A stretch of DNA of 16,100 nucleotides from Candidatus Diapherotrites archaeon CG10_big_fil_rev_8_21_14_0_10_31_34 (GTDB lineage: Archaea; Iainarchaeota; Iainarchaeia; Iainarchaeales; 1-14-0-10-31-34): positions 1 to 16,100 of the forward strand of contig PFAI01000004.1 of assembly GCA_002763225.1 (NCBI GenBank). The letters are read 5' to 3'. Positions 1,687 through 13,735 of the stretch are shown here, piece by piece. The position numbers and the translations under genes are program-made. Within the stretch, counting starts at the first letter, position 1. Each line of letters opens with the position of its first letter. The notes under the pieces were generated by a model that was not told where the DNA came from, ran no database searches, and was given only the letters and a program-made list of their open reading frames with translations.

Positions 1687-2072
1687 GGGTAGTGGAAGAC
1701 CGGCTGACGGTACCATTGTCTGTAAGCAAAGTAAGGCAGTCCAGCTTTATGCTGGACGCTCTACCAACGCGAGCAGGCGTTGTGGCGCTGAGGAAAGTCC
1801 GCTCACTCATTCCCAAAAAACAAACCTGAGAAGGTTTCCCAAAGAGCAGAAACGATACCTTTCCAAAAATTACTATGACCAATTGTGAGATTTTTTGAAA
1901 AAGGATGAAACGTGCTTTGGGTTAAACAGAACTGAAATAAGTTCTGGGAGTGCAAGTCTTTAAGACGCTTAGGTGAATGCCGGCAACAGCCTTTTGAAAA
2001 AAGGCTGGCGAAAATTTTCGTCAACCTTTTGCTAAAAGGTTGAAACAAAAAGCGGCTTACTCTCCACAACCC
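1687..2072 (+). ncRNA. rnpB: RNase P RNA (archaeal type)
   Basis: CR-I GAGGAAAGTCCGC (1790-1802) pairs with CR-V AACAAAAAGCGGCTTA (2044-2059). P1 is GGGTAGTGGA (1687-1696) with TCCACAACCC (2063-2072); P2 is CCGGC/GCCGG. CR-II GCAGAAAC, CR-III TGAAAC and CR-IV TTAGGTGAATG are present. GC-richer than the flanks. Confidence 0.93.
1987..2042. repeat. Tail-to-tail doublet of family-A hairpin repeats within rnpB (P19 position)
   Basis: CAGCCTTTTGAAAAAAGGCTG-GCGAAAA (1987-2014) followed by TTTTCGT-CAACCTTTTGCTAAAAGGTTG (2015-2042). Confidence 0.7.
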
Positions 2073-2678: not shown

Positions 2679-5333
2679 ATGAGTGTATCAAAAAAAGAAT
2701 TAAGAGAAAAGTTTTCAAAGGACTGGAAAACACATTATGACTTAAAATTCTTTAAAGAAAAAGGTTTTGAAAGAAAGCAATGCAAGAGTTGCGGAAGAAA
2801 TTTTTGGACTGTTGATCATTCAAGAAAAACTTGTGCTGACTCAACTTGTGTTGGATATGAATTCATCGGACAAAAAACAACTAAATTAGAGTATGTAGAG
2901 ACATGGAAAGAAATTGAAAACTATTTTACAAAACACGGGCATACTTCAATCAAAAGATATCCAACTGTAAGCAGATGGCGGGACGACCTTTACTTTACTA
3001 ATGCATCAATAATTGATTTTCAGCCTTATGTGGTTAACGGAGAAATTGAACCTCCTGCAAACCCTTTAATTATTCCGCAGACAAGCATCAGGTTTGGAGA
3101 CGTAAACAATGTTGGGGTAACCGGAAGGCATTACACTTGTTTTGTAATGTTTGGCCAGCATGCATTTAACAAAAAAAATAAATTATTTTACTGGAAAGAA
3201 GAAGCAATAAAATATGATTATGAATATGTTTTGAAAGTTTTAGGGATAAAAGAAAAAGACTTGGTTTTTCAGGAAGATGTCTGGATGGGTGGAGGTTCTT
3301 TTGGACCATGCATTGAATATTGTTCTAAAGGAGTTGAATTAGGAAATATTGTTTTCATGCAATACAAGGACATGGGAAACGGAAAATTCAGGGAACTAGA
3401 CACAAAAGTAATTGACATGGGAGCAGGATTAGAAAGGCTTGCATGGTTTACTAATGGTTCTCCTACTTCATATGAATTAACTTTTGGAAAAGCAATTCAG
3501 GACATGAAAAAACAAACCGGAATAAAAGTAGATGAAAAAATGTTTTCAGATTACGCCAAGCTTTCAGGAATACTTGACAGCGAAATAAAAGATTATGAAA
3601 AACAAAAAACATTGATTACAAAAAAAATCGGGGCAGACAAAAAATTCTTTTCTGAATTAGAAAAATTACAGGCACTGTATGCTATTGCAGATCATCTGAA
3701 AAACATTTTATACACTACAAACGACGGAATGCTCCCGTCAAATTCAGGCGGGGGATATAATTTAAGAATGATTTTAAGAAGAGTTTTTGCTTTCAACAAA
3801 GAATTTGGGTTTGGATTAGATTATGGCAAAATAATTGAAAATCATGCACTGCATTTAACTGAACTTGATTCAGAAATAAGCTTAGGAGTTAGAACTGCAA
3901 TAGAAATAGTACAAGAAGAAGAAAAAAAATATAATTCAAGCAAAATAAACGCAGAAAAAAAATTAAGTGCAGTAATAGAAAAAACAAAAAAAGAAAAAAA
4001 AGAATTAAGCTCAAACGAATTAATGACTTTATATGAATCAGATGGTATTGCACCAGAAACAGTTAAAGAAATTGCAGCAAAAAAAGGTATTCAGGTAATC
4101 ATTCCGGCAAACTTTTACCAGATGATTGCAAAAGAAGATGAAATTGAAAAAGAAAAAACCCGGGAAATAAGAATTGACTTTGAAAAAACTTTTCCTTTAT
4201 ATTACGAAGACAGGTATATGCAGGAATTTCAGGCAAAAGTTTCAGGCAAAATGGATGATTACTTGATTTTAGATAAAACTGCTTTTTATCCTGAAGGCGG
4301 AGGACAAGTAGGAGACATTGGAGAAATAAACGGGATAAAAGTTTTGGATACACAGCAGCAGCATGGAGTAATAATGCATGAAATGGAAAAAATTAATAAA
4401 TTTAAAACAGGAATGACTGTAATAGGAAAAATTGACTGGAAAAGAAGGCATAACATAATGAAGCATCATACTGCTGCACATGTATTAAATGCTGCTGCAA
4501 GAGAAGTTTTAGGAAATCATATCTGGCAGGGTGGAAGCAAAAAAGAAGAAAATAAAGCGCATTTGGATTTAACTCATTTTAAGAGAATTACTTCTGAAGA
4601 AATCAAAAAAATTGAGTTTAATGCAAACAGAATAATACAGGAAAACGTTGAAGTGGAAAACTTTGAAATGGAAAGAGATAAAGCAGAACAAAAATTTGGT
4701 TTCAGATTATATCAAGGAGGAGCAGTTCCAGGAAAAAAATTAAGGATATTAAATGTTAAAGGATATGATGTTGAAGCCTGTGGAGGAACACACATTAAAA
4801 ACACCGGAGAAATAGGGTTATTTAAAATAATTAAAAGAGAAGGAATCAAAGACGGAATAGAAAGAATAACTTATTCTGTTGGATTAAATGCAATTAAATT
4901 AATTCAGGAAAAAGAACAAATAATCAAAGAAACCGCTGAACTGCTTGGATGCCCTGAAACAAAAATACTGGAATCAAATAAAAGAATAATTAATGAATGG
5001 AAACAATTAAGAAAACAAATAAATAAAGGAAATTTTTCAGAAAAAGAAATTAATGTAAAAAACCCTAAAGGAAGAAATTTTATTGAATTAAATGATGTTC
5101 CGGAAAAAGCAGTTATTTCTTTGGCTGACAAGCTGGCAAAAGAAAACCCTGAAGGAGAATTTATTTTAATTAATGAAGAAACTGTTTTGGTAATTGAAGG
5201 AATTAAATCAAAATACAAAGCAAACAAAACATTGCAGGAAATTTTTTCTAAAGCAAAAGGCAAAGGCGGGGGAAATGAAAAATTTGCCAGAGGAAAAGTT
5301 TTTGAAAAAGAAAAACTAAAAAAACTTTTTTAG
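2679..5333 (+). CDS. alaS: Alanine--tRNA ligase (archaeal type)
   Basis: N-terminal CxxC 'CKSCGRNFWT', 'RWRDDLYFTNASIIDFQP', 'VGVTGRHYTCFVM', 'IDMGAGLER', editing domain 'HHTAAH' and 'EACGGTH', C-terminal 'GKGGG'. Confidence 0.98.
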   Translation: MSVSKKELREKFSKDWKTHYDLKFFKEKGFERKQCKSCGRNFWTVDHSRKTCADSTCVGYEFIGQKTTKLEYVETWKEIENYFTKHGHTSIKRYPTVSRWRDDLYFTNASIIDFQPYVVNGEIEPPANPLIIPQTSIRFGDVNNVGVTGRHYTCFVMFGQHAFNKKNKLFYWKEEAIKYDYEYVLKVLGIKEKDLVFQEDVWMGGGSFGPCIEYCSKGVELGNIVFMQYKDMGNGKFRELDTKVIDMGAGLERLAWFTNGSPTSYELTFGKAIQDMKKQTGIKVDEKMFSDYAKLSGILDSEIKDYEKQKTLITKKIGADKKFFSELEKLQALYAIADHLKNILYTTNDGMLPSNSGGGYNLRMILRRVFAFNKEFGFGLDYGKIIENHALHLTELDSEISLGVRTAIEIVQEEEKKYNSSKINAEKKLSAVIEKTKKEKKELSSNELMTLYESDGIAPETVKEIAAKKGIQVIIPANFYQMIAKEDEIEKEKTREIRIDFEKTFPLYYEDRYMQEFQAKVSGKMDDYLILDKTAFYPEGGGQVGDIGEINGIKVLDTQQQHGVIMHEMEKINKFKTGMTVIGKIDWKRRHNIMKHHTAAHVLNAAAREVLGNHIWQGGSKKEENKAHLDLTHFKRITSEEIKKIEFNANRIIQENVEVENFEMERDKAEQKFGFRLYQGGAVPGKKLRILNVKGYDVEACGGTHIKNTGEIGLFKIIKREGIKDGIERITYSVGLNAIKLIQEKEQIIKETAELLGCPETKILESNKRIINEWKQLRKQINKGNFSEKEINVKNPKGRNFIELNDVPEKAVISLADKLAKENPEGEFILINEETVLVIEGIKSKYKANKTLQEIFSKAKGKGGGNEKFARGKVFEKEKLKKLF

Positions 5334-5510: not shown

Positions 5511-7313
5511 TTATTCGATGAACCTGGATTTAACATCTACTACTCCTTTGATTTTTTTGATTCTTTTTATTAGTTGTTCTAGTTTTATCGGGTCACTTAA
5601 TTCAATTGTAAAAGAATTTTTTCCAATTCTGCTTTCATAACTGGATTTTATTTCAGCAGAAAAAATGTTTGCATTAGCTTCAACAATTGCGTCAGCAAAA
5701 TCTTTTATTAAGCCAACCCTGTCAAAAGCCCTGAATTCAATTGAAACCAAAGGCATTCTTTGTTTTTTTTCTTTTTTTCTTCTTAAATGTTTTTGAATTT
5801 CTTCTCTTGCTTTAGCTGAAATAGCAAAATTATTCCAAAATTTTGAAACCTTAATATTTTTGCCTGCAATCACTTCAACTAAATCTCCGTTTCCAAGTTT
5901 CTGCCATATTGGAACATTTTTTCCGTTTACTTTGGCTTTCTTTAATCTGTCCCCTGTTTTTGAATCAACTGCATAAGCAAAATCAATTACTGATGCATCT
6001 TTTGGAAGTTCAGTTATTTTTCCTTGAGGAGTAAAAACAAGAATTCTGTCTTTCAAATAATCAGTTTTAAGTGAATCAATAAAAGATTCAGTTGAAAGTT
6101 CATCAATATTAATTGACATTAAATTATTCAGCAAAGAAAGATTTTTTCTGAAAACATTTTTATCTATCTCTGATTCTCTAAGCAGTTCAGCTACTCCTTT
6201 GTTAATCAATGACTGCATTTCTTTTGTTCTGATATAAATTTTGATTGGAGAATGCTTTGGCCCCAAAACAGTAGTATGAATTGATTTATACAAGTCAAGC
6301 TGAGAAATAGACATATGGTCTCTGAACTTTAATGGAATAGGAGAAAAAGTGTTATGCAGGATTCCCAAAAATTCATAGCATTGTTCTTTTGTATCAGTTA
6401 AAGCAATTAAAACAACTGAATCCTGTACTTCAGTAAAGGATTTGAAATTTTGAGTCATTTTTTTGAAAGTACTGTAAGTGGTTCTCCTGTATTTAGTGAA
6501 ATCAACTTTTAATTCTGCTTTAGAAAGTTTTTTTTCAAGTGTTTTAATCATTAAATTCATTTCATCTTCTTTTAGTTTAGTGCTGGTTTTCAGCCTGTTT
6601 CTTATTTTAACATAAATTTTTGGTTTAATTATTTTAAAACAAATTTCTTCAAAATCATCTTTTAAATCATGCAAACCAAGTTTTTTTGCTAAAGGAACAT
6701 AGAATTCTAATGCATGAGAAGCAATCATAATTTGTTTTTGTTTTGGAAGAAACTGCAGTGTTTTAAGATTATGGTATTTGTCTGCCAGTTTAATCAATAA
6801 AACCCTTACATCTTTTGTTGTAGCAAGCAATATTTTCTGTAAAGCAACATTGTATTCTTTTCTGTCGCTTATTGTTACAATCTGCCTTAATTTAGTTAAG
6901 CTTTCAACCAAAGAAGCAACTTCTTTTCCAAAAACTGTTTTAATTTCTTTTACTGCTGTTTCAGTGTCTTCAACTACATCGTGAAGCAATGCTGCTGCAA
7001 TAGACTGAGCATCCATTTTTAACTGAGTTAAATATAATGCAGTGTTATAAGGGTGAATAAAATAAGGTTCTCCTGAAACTCTTTTTTGTTTTAAATGCTT
7101 TTTCTTTGAATACCAGAATGCTTTAGAAATTAACTCTGAACCAAACTCTTCTTTTGAGTTTTTATTCAAAAACTTTAATCCAGTTTTCAATGCAAACCTT
7201 TCTTTTGAAATCTTTAAAGCTTTTTTGATAAAACTTGATTCTTTTTTATTGTAAGAATAATAATTATCCAAAAGTTTTTCAAGCATTTCATTGTAATTCA
7301 GTTTTTTTGACAT
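5511..7313 (-). CDS. Long RelA/SpoT homologue (HD hydrolase - degenerate synthetase - TGS - ACT)
   Basis: 'QKRVSGEPYFIHP', 'ALLHDVVEDT', 'IKLADKYHN' (HD domain); 'VFTPQG...LPKDASVIDFAYAV' (TGS); 'AFDRVGLIKD' (ACT). ATG 7313 is preferred over the track start (7331) because an SD-like AGTGAT precedes it. Confidence 0.92.
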   Translation of the reverse strand: MSKKLNYNEMLEKLLDNYYSYNKKESSFIKKALKISKERFALKTGLKFLNKNSKEEFGSELISKAFWYSKKKHLKQKRVSGEPYFIHPYNTALYLTQLKMDAQSIAAALLHDVVEDTETAVKEIKTVFGKEVASLVESLTKLRQIVTISDRKEYNVALQKILLATTKDVRVLLIKLADKYHNLKTLQFLPKQKQIMIASHALEFYVPLAKKLGLHDLKDDFEEICFKIIKPKIYVKIRNRLKTSTKLKEDEMNLMIKTLEKKLSKAELKVDFTKYRRTTYSTFKKMTQNFKSFTEVQDSVVLIALTDTKEQCYEFLGILHNTFSPIPLKFRDHMSISQLDLYKSIHTTVLGPKHSPIKIYIRTKEMQSLINKGVAELLRESEIDKNVFRKNLSLLNNLMSINIDELSTESFIDSLKTDYLKDRILVFTPQGKITELPKDASVIDFAYAVDSKTGDRLKKAKVNGKNVPIWQKLGNGDLVEVIAGKNIKVSKFWNNFAISAKAREEIQKHLRRKKEKKQRMPLVSIEFRAFDRVGLIKDFADAIVEANANIFSAEIKSSYESRIGKNSFTIELSDPIKLEQLIKRIKKIKGVVDVKSRFIE

Positions 7314-7327
7314 AAAAAAAATCACTT

Positions 7328-9040
7328 TCACATATTATCTAAAACTTGTATTCCTAATAAATTTAATCCTTTTTTTAAAACAATTGAAGTGCTTTCAACT
7401 AAAGCAATCCTTGAATCACTTGCTTTTTCTTTTTCATCAATTACCCTGCAGTTCTGGTAAAAAACATTAAACGTTGAAGTTAAATCCAAAAGATAATGAC
7501 ATAAAATGTGCGGAGACAAAGAATCAAAAGAAAAAGAAATTTTTTCCGGAAACAATGAAAGCTTTGAAATCAGGTTTTTTTCTTCTTCAGTTAAATCCCT
7601 GAATTCAAATAATTTTTTGTTTTTCTTTTTTTTGCTTGTCTTTTTTAAAATACTTTTGCATCTGGCAAAAGCATATTGAATAAACACAGAAGTTTCTCCT
7701 TCAAATGAAATGCTTTCTTTTGGATTAAAATAAATGTCTTTCATTGCATCAGTTTTCAGCAGGAAAAATTTTATTGCGCCTAAACCAATTATTTCTGATC
7801 TGAAATTTAATTCTTTTTCTTTTAGTTCAGGATTTCTTTTAGTTAATTCTTTTTTTGACAGTTCAATTAGTTCTTCAATTAAATCATCTGCATCAACTAC
7901 TGTTCCTTCTCTTGACTTCATTTTTCCTTCCGGGAGAAAAACCATTCCATAACTGTAATGCAGGCATTTGCTGACCCAGTCAAAGCCAAGCAGTTCAAGA
8001 GATTTAAATAACTGTTTAAAATAAAGGTTTTGTTCTGAGCCGACAACCCAAATACTTTTTTCCAAAGGAAACTTTCTGAACTTTTCAGGAGTCAAAATCA
8101 GGTCATTGGTTAAGTAAATTGCTGTCCCGTCTTTTCTTAACACAACTTTTTTTCCTAAACCAAATTTATCCAAATCAACCACAATGTTTTGTTCCTGGTC
8201 TTTAACAAAAACTTTTTTTGTTAAACCTAACTCAATTATTTTTTTTGATTCACCAAATAACTCTGATTCCCTGTAAATTACATCAAACTCAGAACCAAAT
8301 TTTTTATAAGTCTCAAAAATTCCTTTAACACTCCAGTCATTCATTTTCTTCCATAACAACCAGGTTTCTTTGTCTTTTTTTTCCCATTTTTCAAGCAATT
8401 CCAATGCTTCTTTTTCTAATTCAGGATTTTCTTTTGCTTTCTGGTTAAATAAAACATAATAATCTCCGACAAAATGATCAGACTTTTTTTCCGGTTTTTT
8501 TCTTTCACCAAATTTTTGGTATGCAAGCATTGACTTGCAGATATGCACTCCCCTGTCATTAATCAGAATTGCTTTAATTACATTAAACCCATTAACTGAA
8601 TACAAATGACTTAAACTCATTCCAATTGAATCATTTCTTAAATGACCTATATGCAATGGCTTGTTTGTGTTAGGAGAAGAATACTCTATCATTACTTTCT
8701 TGTTTTTTCCAATTGAAGTTAAACCAAACTTTTCTTTTTCTTTTAAAATTTCAGGGATTAATTTTTTTGCTAAAAAAGAATAATCCAAAAAAAGATTTAA
8801 GTAAGGGCCTTTAGTTTCAGTTGAATTAATTAAACTAATTTTTTTTAAATCAATTTTTTCTTTGAATTCTGAAGCAATTTGTTTTGGGTCTTTCTTTAAT
8901 TCTTTTGATAATTTAAAGCAAGGAAAAGAATAATCTCCTAGTTCTTTGGATGGAGGAACTTCAAGCAAATCAAAAACTTTTTCTTTTTCTAGGGAAAGGA
9001 TTTTTGACAGCTCTGAAACTATTTCTTTCTTTAAATTCAT
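7328..9040 (-). CDS. argS: Arginine--tRNA ligase
   Basis: 'EYSSPNTNKPLHIGHLRN' (HIGH), 'GKMKSREG', 'SFEGET...IQYAFAR', C-terminal 'LLGI...M'. ATG 9040 is preferred over the TTG at 9064. Confidence 0.97.
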   Translation of the reverse strand: MNLKKEIVSELSKILSLEKEKVFDLLEVPPSKELGDYSFPCFKLSKELKKDPKQIASEFKEKIDLKKISLINSTETKGPYLNLFLDYSFLAKKLIPEILKEKEKFGLTSIGKNKKVMIEYSSPNTNKPLHIGHLRNDSIGMSLSHLYSVNGFNVIKAILINDRGVHICKSMLAYQKFGERKKPEKKSDHFVGDYYVLFNQKAKENPELEKEALELLEKWEKKDKETWLLWKKMNDWSVKGIFETYKKFGSEFDVIYRESELFGESKKIIELGLTKKVFVKDQEQNIVVDLDKFGLGKKVVLRKDGTAIYLTNDLILTPEKFRKFPLEKSIWVVGSEQNLYFKQLFKSLELLGFDWVSKCLHYSYGMVFLPEGKMKSREGTVVDADDLIEELIELSKKELTKRNPELKEKELNFRSEIIGLGAIKFFLLKTDAMKDIYFNPKESISFEGETSVFIQYAFARCKSILKKTSKKKKNKKLFEFRDLTEEEKNLISKLSLFPEKISFSFDSLSPHILCHYLLDLTSTFNVFYQNCRVIDEKEKASDSRIALVESTSIVLKKGLNLLGIQVLDNM

Positions 9041-9137
9041 GTTACCCAAAATATCTTGAAGCAAAAAAGTTAATAAAGTAAAAGATTTGCTTTAGAATGT
9101 AAATAAGTTTTTATAGTAGTTTTAAAGTATTAATAAC

Positions 9138-12146: not shown

Positions 12147-12208
12147 ATTCTTATTATTGTTTTAAGTAGTATTTTATAATTTCAGTCAAAAAGAATTAGG
12201 GTATGACA

Positions 12209-12320
12209 GCACTATCGAACGAAGTGAAGATAGCGCGCGTTGCTCGCGGGCGCAACAGCCGGACTGAGCAAAGCGAACGCCCTGTGCCGTTGCTCGCGAA
12301 TTGAACTGCGACGGCGAAAC
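12209..12320 (+). repeat. GC-rich composite of family-B hairpins
   Basis: GC-A-CTATC-GA-AC-GAA-GT-GAA-GATAG-C-GC (12209-12236); AACAGCCGGACTGAGCAAAGCGAACGCC (12254-12281); GTTGCTCGCG twice (12239, 12289); GCCGTTGC/GCGACGGC stem (12286-12315). Confidence 0.7.
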
Positions 12321-12386
12321 AGCCGGACAGAAGGTCGTGCATTTTGATTAAACTTTTCTTAAAAGTTTACGGGCCTGGGAGGATTC
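12317..12386 (-). repeat. att-like direct repeat: duplicated tRNA-Arg 3' end plus downstream flank
   Basis: 68/70 identical to 13472-13541, with 57 bp exact (12330-12386 = 13485-13541); includes the last 17 nt of the tRNA, breaking in the T-loop. Confidence 0.9.
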
Positions 12387-12480: not shown

Positions 12481-13449
12481 GTGGCTAAGGTAGTTAAAAG
12501 AAAAGTCAGCGAAAAAGAATACTTTTATTTAGAGAAGACGATCAGGATTGGAAAAAAGGTCAGAAAACTGTACAATTATTTAGGCAAAAAAATGCCTTCA
12601 AAAAAAGAGCTGGCTAAAAAAGAGAAGGAACTGGAAGAAAAGGCTTTGCTGAAATTTTATAAGAAAAGATTAAGTAAATTTAAGTTTTCTTTTCTTTCGG
12701 AAAAGGAAATAATTGAAGCCGAAATAATTAAAGCCAGTTTTTCTGAAAGATTCAGCAAATTAAGTGAAAAAAAGAAGAATGAATTCAATAAAAAACAAGT
12801 AATAGATTTTGTTTATACCACTTTAAGAACTGAAGGGGTTGATGTTGACTTTTCTGATGTCCAGACTGCGTTCACTATTCTCCAAAAGAAAAAAGGAGAA
12901 TTCACTTTTGACAAAAAAGTCATTATTTCTAGTGCAATGATTAGTGGACTGAATTTTCTGCCAAAAATTAAGATTAACGAAAAGGATGTGCTTAGATTAC
13001 ATGGGATTATTATGTCTTCTTTTGAAGATAAAAGTCCTGGACAGTTAAGGGATGACCAAAGAATTATTGCTAAATTTAATCCAGTAACATTTCAAAGCGA
13101 AGAAATAAAGTACAGGCCTCCGAATCCAAAAGATGCTGAAAAGAGATTTAAGGAATTTTTTGAATGGTTTAATGGAAACCAAGATATTTATCCTTTAGAG
13201 CTGGCCGCTCTGGTGCATCTAAAAATCTATTTAATTCATCCTTTTAAGGATGGAAACAAAAGAATCTGCAGGCTGCTTTTTAACAAAGTTTTACAGGATT
13301 CTGGTTATCCTTTACTTAACATTTCAAAAAAGACTTCTGATTATTTTAATGCTTTAATTAAATCAGTTGAAACAAAAGACGAAAAACATTTTGTTAAATT
13401 CTGCCATAAAACGTTTATTGAACAAGTGAAACACAAAAGAATCAAATAA
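12481..13449 (+). CDS. Fic/Doc family protein with an internal inhibitory motif and a basic N-terminal domain
   Basis: Fic motif HPFKDGNKRICR; (S/T)xxxE(G/N) motif TLRTEG; 'LHGII...PGQLR'; GTG start. Confidence 0.92.
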   Translation: MAKVVKRKVSEKEYFYLEKTIRIGKKVRKLYNYLGKKMPSKKELAKKEKELEEKALLKFYKKRLSKFKFSFLSEKEIIEAEIIKASFSERFSKLSEKKKNEFNKKQVIDFVYTTLRTEGVDVDFSDVQTAFTILQKKKGEFTFDKKVIISSAMISGLNFLPKIKINEKDVLRLHGIIMSSFEDKSPGQLRDDQRIIAKFNPVTFQSEEIKYRPPNPKDAEKRFKEFFEWFNGNQDIYPLELAALVHLKIYLIHPFKDGNKRICRLLFNKVLQDSGYPLLNISKKTSDYFNALIKSVETKDEKHFVKFCHKTFIEQVKHKRIK

Positions 13450-13524
13450 TTGAATTTCGTTAAGCAGAAAAAAACAGCAGGACCGAAGGTCGTGCATTTT
13501 GATTAAACTTTTCTTAAAAGTTTA

Positions 13525-13735
13525 CGGGCCTGGGAGGATTCGAACCCCCGATCCTCAGCTTACAACTTTTTCCAAAAGTTGTATCAAAAACAGTCCTTCG
13601 GACATCGCACAACAAAGTTGTGCGCCATAATAAAGATTGAAGGATTGCAGTGCGAGTTTATCTCGCACGTTTTGTTACACCTTTTGGAAAAAGTGTTTTA
13701 GAAGGCTGATACCTTATCCACTAGGCTACAGGCCC
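13525..13735 (-). tRNA. tRNA-Arg(UCU) interrupted by a 138-nt insert/intron in the anticodon loop (13561-13698 if at 37/38)
   Basis: Exon 1 GGGCCTG-TA-GCCTAGTGGATAAGGT-A-TCAGC-CT-TCT-A (13735-13699); exon 2 A-GCTGA-GGATC-GGGGG-TTCGAAT-CCTCC-CAGGCCC-G (13560-13525). All stems pair; CCA is not encoded. Confidence 0.92.
13563..13697. mobile_element. MITE/REPIN-like element forming the tRNA insert
   Basis: Inverted termini 13563-13589 and 13670-13696 (23/27 match), each self-palindromic; TTA direct repeats at 13560-13562 and 13698-13700; three internal hairpins. Confidence 0.55.

Follow-up and report, generated by a model that had tools for sequence, protein, structure and literature searches.

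The tRNA-Arg(UCU) gene of the groundwater archaeon analysed here, an Iainarchaeota-like member of the DPANN, is the only one found in its assembly and carries an intron of 138 nt. With a probability of about 70%, we consider this to be an old intron at the canonical site which was rebuilt from modules dispersed in the genome, and whose degenerate splicing motif is cut by a tRNA splicing endonuclease (EndA) of the plain alpha4 type. All positions refer to the window, i.e. the whole stretch of 16,100 nt. The host assembly (1.04 Mb, 31% GC, 81% complete) is termed G000, the other genomes of the genus G001 to G005; further related genomes are numbered in the same way, and contigs of the host assembly carry the letter C. 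The gene and its surroundings comprise the following features.

13525-13735, minus strand: tRNA-Arg(UCU) gene with intron, 211 nt; spliced in silico it gives a tRNA-Arg(tct) of 73 nt (ARAGORN)
13699-13735, minus strand: 5' exon, tRNA positions 1-37, with stem UCAGC/GCUGA and loop CUUCUA+A
13561-13698, minus strand: intron, 138 nt, at canonical position 37/38; TAA at both ends lets the junction slide by up to 3 nt
13525-13560, minus strand: 3' exon, tRNA positions 38-73
13565-13589, no strand: arm 1 of the terminal inverted repeat, pairing with 13670-13694; 25 nt, 92% complementary
13670-13694, no strand: arm 2 of the terminal inverted repeat, pairing with 13565-13589
13701-13704, minus strand: exon side of the central helix, C32 U33 U34 C35
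13563-13566, minus strand: GUUG, the intron strand of the central helix; pairing is limited to the two outer C-G pairs
13606-13624, minus strand: inner hairpin of 8 bp with a loop of 3; in the CCU paralog the stem is kept and the loop is different
13645-13696, minus strand: forward 53-nt bipartite element at the intron 5' end (nhmmer E=5e-17), from alignment and dispersed copies
13561-13603, minus strand: inverted shorter unit of the same build at the intron 3' end, with a GC hairpin (13593-13603), a spacer and an AT hairpin (13561-13583)
13475-13523, minus strand: trailer copy of the bipartite element, beginning 2 nt past the tRNA 3' end (nhmmer E=0.0032)

Read on the minus strand from 13735 to 13525, the acceptor stem, D arm, T arm and the 5-bp anticodon stem (UCAGC/GCUGA) were all perfect. 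The initial annotation had described an insert of 138 nt in an otherwise perfect tRNA, and excision of 13561-13698 by script indeed left 73 nt that ARAGORN named tRNA-Arg(tct). Intronless orthologs read CAGCCTTCTAAGCTG, which fixes the mature loop as CUUCUAA, and the intron lies in this anticodon loop between positions 37 and 38. The inverted intron ends proposed in the same annotation are real, with 23 matches over 25 nt rather than over 27. Its TAA direct repeat is present at both junctions, and in a metagenome contig skipping exactly 138 nt three letters fit either side. Among the hairpins it had listed, 13606-13624 and 13650-13668 are perfect and 13593-13603 was seen in the fold, while a third perfect one was found at 13561-13583. 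Its count of two standard pairs out of four for CUUC against GUUG was reproduced. In default mode ARAGORN reported no tRNA in the window, and in intron mode it took the gene for a Tyr(gta) tRNA whose intron would lie at position 31. With Rfam at its gathering thresholds, RNase P RNA alone was reported over the window, so that the tRNA was missed. Consequently, genomes of this group may look as if they were devoid of tRNA-Arg(UCU). ARAGORN misnamed several tRNAs of G000, as for example those with loops reading CUG, UUG, CGG and UGU.

Two kinds of hairpin modules were recognised in the intron. The AT-rich hairpin comprises three variable pairs outside a C..G-closed T/A run and is usually followed by WATCAAAA. 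In the genome, 118 copies matched the strict pattern, compared to 1-9 in ten Markov-1 simulations. This family-specific pattern was used instead of a generic count of perfect hairpins, which gave 699 versus 450-474 simulated (1.5x). Just 49 of the 118 copies were located in stop-free frames of at least 100 codons, although such frames make up 88% of the genome. The second module is a bipartite element of 53 nt, in which an AT hairpin, AACAAAAY, a 7-bp GC-rich hairpin and CUGCAA follow each other. An HMM built from 11 copies gave 33 nhmmer matches at E <= 0.01, and in the 23 near-full-length copies the pairing of the GC hairpin was perfect through at least 8 different stem sequences.

Seven of the 33 matches begin 1-3 nt past a tRNA 3' end on the same strand, three lie within tRNA introns, two adjoin tRNA 5' ends on the opposite strand and three more are found less than 100 nt from a tRNA. 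A further group of 6/33 begins at most 3 nt from the stop codon of an upstream ORF in the same direction, and in 18 of the 26 matches outside long frames the upstream side was oriented toward a gene 3' end. Given this placement at the 3' ends of tRNAs and ORFs, with tRNA genes comprising just 0.46% of the genome, the bipartite element behaves as a gene-end module, be it a terminator, an RNA end-stabiliser or a repeat that is tolerated or targeted there.

In the intron of tRNA-Arg(UCU), the element at 13645-13696 shows the order AT hairpin, AACAAAAC spacer, GC hairpin GUGCGAG/CUCGCAC and UGCAA. At the other end, the AT hairpin of the inverted unit adjoins the 3' splice site; the 43 nt of this unit are identical in the CCU paralog, and an 89% copy is present at C32:2860-2896. 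A comparison of the intron and the modules with Rfam gave no family matches. This content of dispersed hairpin modules supports one of the two origins offered in the initial annotation, the invasion of an existing intron by repeats. The orthologous intron of G002 has an inverted bipartite element (98% over 46 nt) at its 3' end, and the intron of G004 comprises one extra hairpin-plus-spacer unit of 27 nt compared to G003 and G005. From these two cases, turnover of modules is apparent among the introns of the genus.

Hairpins of the family were also observed in the archaeal RNase P RNA of the window (1688-2071, plus strand, 96.6 bits), where an insertion outside the model holds two of them (1986-2007 and 2021-2042). 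In G039, which belongs to another family of the order, an AT hairpin of this kind stands at the start of the intron in a tRNA whose anticodon loop reads UCC (Gly), and the hairpin type thus reaches beyond the genus. Among the papers listed by full-text literature searches, none dealt with hairpin repeats in tRNA introns of DPANN or Iainarchaeota. No Y1 transposase (Y1_Tnp) was matched in the 81% of the genome represented by G000, and among nine genomes only G004 gave matches. A link of the modules to IS200/IS605-type transposases was considered and rejected, as the four Y1 matches of G004 are flanked by GC-rich hairpins unlike the modules. TnpB-like domains above the cut-off were not found in the nine genomes.

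These observations are probably best explained as follows. Within the genus, the interior and both ends of the intron would have been replaced by short structured modules dispersed in the genome, one of them the AT-rich hairpin followed by an A-rich spacer, the other the 53-nt two-hairpin element that usually stands directly behind tRNA and protein genes. A full element in forward orientation at the 5' end together with a shorter one inverted at the 3' end would then appear as a terminal inverted repeat. The two Arg(YCU) paralogs would exchange intron sequence, and the module at the 3' end would have overwritten the intron half of the central helix. Left over would be a normal 3-nt 3' bulge, a helix consisting of C32-G and C35-G, a 5' bulge of 8 nt instead of 3 nt and a long helix between the modules. 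The plain alpha4 EndA would cut this degenerate motif, and the normal ligase would presumably join the exons.

The exchange between paralogs is indicated by the tRNA-Arg(CCU) gene on contig C16, which has an intron of 136 nt at the same site. The first 36 nt of the UCU and CCU introns are alike in 34 positions and the last 43 nt in all 43, while the 5' exons share only 30 of 37 positions. Two inner hairpins differ between the paralogs by compensatory changes, e.g. GUGCGAG/CUCGCAC versus GUACGAC/GUCGUAC. Within the genus, the UCU intron of G001 resembles the CCU intron of G002, and the 5' start common to the UCU introns of G002-G005 also opens the CCU introns in G001 and G003-G005. The simplest reading of these alignments would be a repeated exchange (gene conversion) between UCU and CCU introns, which would explain why the intron ends of the paralogs are more alike than their exons. 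At one position the paralogs differ by a U7 to C7 change, which strengthens the local 5' hairpin and disrupts the helix between the modules; this speaks against selection on the latter.

It is nevertheless conceivable that the modules are not mere passengers. The inverted pair could clamp the splice sites and thereby enable an alpha4 EndA to cut, or the excised intron could serve a separate function, be it as a stable or circular RNA or as a platform for protein binding. This would be in line with the AT hairpins that many Arg(YCU) introns of the genus have directly beside their splice sites, with the tRNA-Pro(UGG) intron, in which the halves of the terminal hairpins form a perfect inner helix, and with the compensatory changes in the inner hairpins. 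The stronger conservation of intron ends compared to exons would also fit, but recent gene conversion gives the same pattern. Moreover, orthologs within one genus differ wholly in their module content, so there is no need for a particular sequence, and such modules are missing from the introns spliced at this site in G001 and the more distant relatives. A function of the modules is regarded as unlikely.

How far the splicing motif deviates can be seen from a comparison with the standard geometry, in which positions 32-35 pair with the four intron bases before the last two. The strict hBHBh' motif has a central helix of 4 bp, compared to 2/4 here. Next to the anticodon stem, the 3' site has its 3-nt bulge (U-A-A beside G39-C31). 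At the 5' site, a bulge of 8 nt precedes 12 consecutive pairs, where the strict motif has a 3-nt bulge followed by the inner helix. The other junction registers allowed by the TAA ambiguity were checked by reading and gave no better central helix. When the RNA was forced into a splice-competent fold, the prediction contained the 5-bp anticodon stem, the U-A-A 3' bulge, C32-G and C35-G around two U.U mismatches (the CCU paralog has a C.U in the central helix where the UCU gene has U.U), the 8-nt 5' bulge and, beyond it, an uninterrupted helix of 12 pairs formed by the inverted modules. In the fold, the central helix is in competition with the outermost 4 pairs that the inverted modules can form. 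Relative to the best fold with a fixed anticodon stem, adopting the splice-competent register costs 6.8 kcal/mol. Since this cost ranged from 0 to 8.1 in other introns and amounted to 7.8 for the perfect motif of tRNA-Pro, the energy does not discriminate between good and poor motifs. The precursor of tRNA-Arg(UCU) is presumably spliced from a conformer close to the one modelled here.

Among 15 curated introns at the canonical position in this genome, the central helix comprised 4/4 pairs in ten, 3/4 in three and 2/4 in two, both of them Arg(YCU), with one solution per gene chosen by hand and with C13:9881-9977 (no convincing solution) and C23:21524-21842 (looks spurious) left out. The bulge-helix-bulge of tRNA-Arg(UCU) is thus the weakest of this set, consistent with the relaxed motif suggested before, while splicing as such is deduced. 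A textbook motif was obtained for tRNA-Pro(UGG). Within the genus, relaxed helices are the rule: of 12 Arg(YCU) introns, two showed 4/4, seven 3/4 and three 2/4 pairs. For UCU, the helix was 4/4 in G001, 3/4 in G002-G005 and 2/4 in G000; for CCU, it was 4/4 in G001, 3/4 in G003-G005 and 2/4 in G000 and G002. The C32 pair beside the 3' bulge was kept in all 16 Arg(YCU) introns compared, four of which are from outside the genus. Other tRNA introns of G000, on contigs C15, C58, C45 and C23, have lengths of 109-254 nt, the longest belonging to a tRNA on C15 whose anticodon loop reads GCA (Cys).

One EndA gene was found at C6:1218-1736 of G000, encoding 172 aa with the domains PF02778 and PF01974. 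Residues 3-171 align without gaps to residues 2-170 of the alpha4 enzyme of M. jannaschii, which argues for a putative plain alpha4 enzyme without a loop insert, with the qualification that a second subunit could sit in the missing part of the 81%-complete assembly. In 10 out of 11 relatives, including a single-contig genome, one gene with the catalytic domain (open frame of 137-197 aa) was present; the one without a match is 89% complete. PMC5829648 describes relaxed motifs as being handled by enzymes with inserted loops L1, L2 and L3, and associates such motifs with (alpha-beta)2 enzymes, epsilon2 enzymes or alpha4 forms containing an L3 insert. According to PMC5829648, L3-bearing alpha4 forms occur in several DPANN lineages, and alpha4 enzymes devoid of the specificity loop are held to cut strict motifs only.

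One way in which a loop-less alpha4 EndA might cope with the motif would be that the inverted gene-end modules clamp the splice sites for it, and the gene may even consist of two transcribed halves that are joined like the split tRNAs of Nanoarchaeum. If so, with the halves pairing via the 25-nt complementarity of the modules, the gene would represent a living intermediate between intron-containing and split tRNA genes. We regard this combination as quite improbable. A cut at another 3' site, or a joining of two transcripts in trans through module pairing as in split tRNAs, is likewise considered very improbable. A free scan for BHB motifs with at most one mismatch gave hundreds of chance matches in this AT-rich RNA, and its sole useful outcome was a motif in which the cut would lie 7 nt upstream of the proper 3' site, and which with 1 mismatch in 8 scored pairs has the better score on paper; in the CCU paralog, GUUGU can furthermore replace the 3' strand of the anticodon stem with 5/5 pairs. 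Such a cut would, however, leave 7 extra nt and a variable region of 12 nt, which are absent from every ortholog. For joining in trans, it could be said that stand-alone genes end in the very element found as the 5' module, but the TATA-like sequence midway through the intron is not conserved in the paralog. Cutting at the proper site by the plain alpha4 EndA is still assumed.

The codon usage underlines the need for this tRNA. In stop-free frames of at least 200 codons, AGA accounted for 72.6% and AGG for 18.7% of 7848 Arg codons, together 91%, which confirms that AGA is the dominant Arg codon, as had been noticed from the sequence. ARAGORN, a search with the precursor and a stem-loop pattern scan (82 matches, none in a tRNA context by eye) revealed no second tRNA-Arg(UCU) in the assembly; at 81% completeness, a further copy could sit in the missing part. 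G005, which is 96% complete, was found to have one UCU locus, intron-bearing in the precursor search, and one CCU locus. In view of the 91% share of AGA and AGG and of the single gene found, the tRNA-Arg(UCU) gene is taken to be functional and to be spliced through its degenerate motif. In the neighbourhood of the gene, an arginyl-tRNA synthetase is encoded at 7328-9064 (minus strand), at a distance of 4.5 kb, besides an alanyl-tRNA synthetase (2679-5333) and a RelA/SpoT-like HD-TGS-ACT protein (5511-7331). The nearest sequences to the arginyl-tRNA synthetase came from metagenome genomes labelled Candidatus Iainarchaeum (52-55% identity) and from two further archaeal genomes (73-74%).

The opposite assumption would be that the gene is a pseudogene which is no longer spliced, with a working copy in the unassembled fifth of the genome. 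The incomplete assembly, the central helix of just 2/4 and the plain alpha4 type of EndA would agree with this. Yet the exons make a perfect cloverleaf, and as the intron ends are the same in the CCU paralog, the two major Arg tRNAs would both have to be dead, though 91% of the Arg codons need them. The single UCU locus listed for the nearly complete G005 likewise contains the intron, and the CCU gene of G002 also has a 2/4 helix. Finally, the sequence is fixed at full depth in the population: the intron-bearing form was recovered at the main depth (~47) in run X3 with 0-1 differing letters. Loss of function is accordingly considered very improbable.

The age of the intron was assessed by searching 41 related genomes with the precursor and reading the loci. 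An intron at the same site of tRNA-Arg(UCU) was present in all six genomes of the genus (G000-G005, 83-143 nt), in two other genera of the family (G006, 216 nt; G008, 102 nt) and in two other families of the order (G033, 72 nt; G023, 17 nt). In five of these ten genes the central helix has four perfect pairs, with GAAG, GAGG or GGGG opposite CUUC, and the short introns of the relatives are devoid of repeats. Intronless tRNA-Arg(UCU) genes were read in G009, G016, G022, G025, G034 and G040. Since the same site is occupied across the genus and in more distant relatives, the intron is, as far as these orthologs can be compared, an old one at the canonical site and not a new one. The idea of a transposon-derived intron caught at birth, put forward in the initial annotation, thus had to be abandoned: no empty site was found in the close relatives (6/6 genomes of the genus occupied), and intronless genes occurred only in more distant ones. 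The proposed analogy to target site duplications of IS5/Harbinger elements found no support either, as TAA/TAA was observed in the UCU and CCU genes of G000 only and shrinks to one or two A's in common in the orthologs; the dispersed copies of the bipartite element showed no flanking repeat. The insert as a whole, which had been likened to a miniature mobile element, gave 2 copies in a BLAST search against its own genome, both at the homologous site of the Arg(YCU) paralogs, while parts of it were matched at many locations.

In contigs assembled from two groundwater metagenome runs, position 13559 is joined to 13698, so that exactly 138 nt are skipped; the shorter side has 35 letters and the depth is 3.5-3.8. 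An interpretation as an empty site of the same species was rejected on account of this depth, the short side of 35 nt and contigs with other flanks that exit the tRNA at both ends. As the latter leave the tRNA at both ends, other organisms in these runs also possess it, and one of these is the most likely source of the skip.

The recent entry of a MITE-like miniature transposon with TAA target duplication into an intronless tRNA, for which the 25-nt inverted ends, the TAA at both junctions and the intronless tRNA-Arg(UCU) genes known from further families of the order and from this groundwater could be cited, is almost certainly not the origin of the intron, as all genomes of the genus and four more distant ones have an intron at this site, in some cases short and free of repeats, the complete element exists in only 2 copies at a homologous tRNA site, the TAA repeat is not kept in orthologs, neither a Y1 transposase nor a TnpB-like match above the curated cut-off was obtained in G000, and the intronless contigs, at their low depth, are accompanied by contigs of other organisms holding the tRNA.

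Some further observations were made in the trailer region. A direct repeat of 70 nt (97%), located at 12317-12386 and 13472-13541 and consisting of the last 17 nt of the tRNA and 53 nt of the trailer, brackets an ORF of 322 aa with a Fic/DOC domain (12481-13449, plus strand). In two of four metagenome runs, contigs join 13484 back to 12330 with 57 letters in common, and one of them has a length of 1185 nt, i.e. a unit of 1155 nt plus 30. These contigs fit a circular or tandem Fic cassette or an assembly loop; no integrase was seen. A GC-rich hairpin stretch without an Rfam match follows the second repeat copy (12200-12320, minus strand), and related GC-rich hairpins were found directly after the tRNA in G001-G004. 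This stretch looks like the original tRNA trailer that was displaced in G000 by the Fic cassette. In G008, the tRNA 3' end and trailer occur downstream of tRNA-Arg(UCU) about three times in tandem, in units of ~73 nt with degenerate T arm and acceptor end.

According to the accepted picture, the architecture of the archaeal endonuclease is coupled to the strictness of the intron motif, and here the two tRNAs responsible for 91% of the Arg codons rest on a helix with two mismatches. If a plain alpha4 EndA cuts the motif of tRNA-Arg(UCU), the substrate range of such enzymes would be wider than assumed. Furthermore, tRNA introns could grow from ~17 nt to more than 200 nt by taking up the gene-end hairpin modules of their own genome, and the present case shows a way in which paralogous tRNAs could share introns.

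The closest known systems are archaeal introns with relaxed BHB/BHL motifs (HBh' type). The intron described here shares with them the position 37/38, the 3-nt 3' bulge by the anticodon stem, the enlarged or missing 5' bulge and the presumed removal by EndA. In contrast to these, the enzyme is colinear with the loop-less alpha4 enzyme of M. jannaschii, whereas PMC5829648 ties relaxed motifs to other enzymes. A second difference concerns the defect itself, which lies inside the central helix (two U.U) and not in a bulge.

Bacterial REP and REPIN sequences are short palindromic hairpins of about a hundred copies, mostly extragenic and at gene 3' ends, which occur singly, in arrays and as inverted doublets. 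The present modules share these traits, and the AT-rich hairpin in particular resembles them as a short palindromic high-copy sequence with a mostly extragenic location (118 copies versus 1-9 simulated, 49/118 in frames). Unlike REP sequences, the modules are archaeal and AT-rich and are present inside tRNA introns and RNase P RNA; in addition, no RAYT/Y1 transposase was matched in G000, and these hairpins are absent from the flanks of the G004 Y1 genes. In Thermoproteales, transposition among tRNA genes has brought short introns to numerous sites and tRNAs. In both cases, different tRNA genes within a genome have related introns, but the sharing described here involves two paralogs and the same site and looks like gene conversion. 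The palindromic elements of Rickettsia are small repeats tolerated inside RNA and protein genes; they belong to a bacterial lineage and are probably unrelated in sequence to the present modules. Compared to MITEs and other small DNA transposons, terminal inverted repeats are likewise present, yet they consist of two oriented copies of a dispersed module and not of the two ends of one element.
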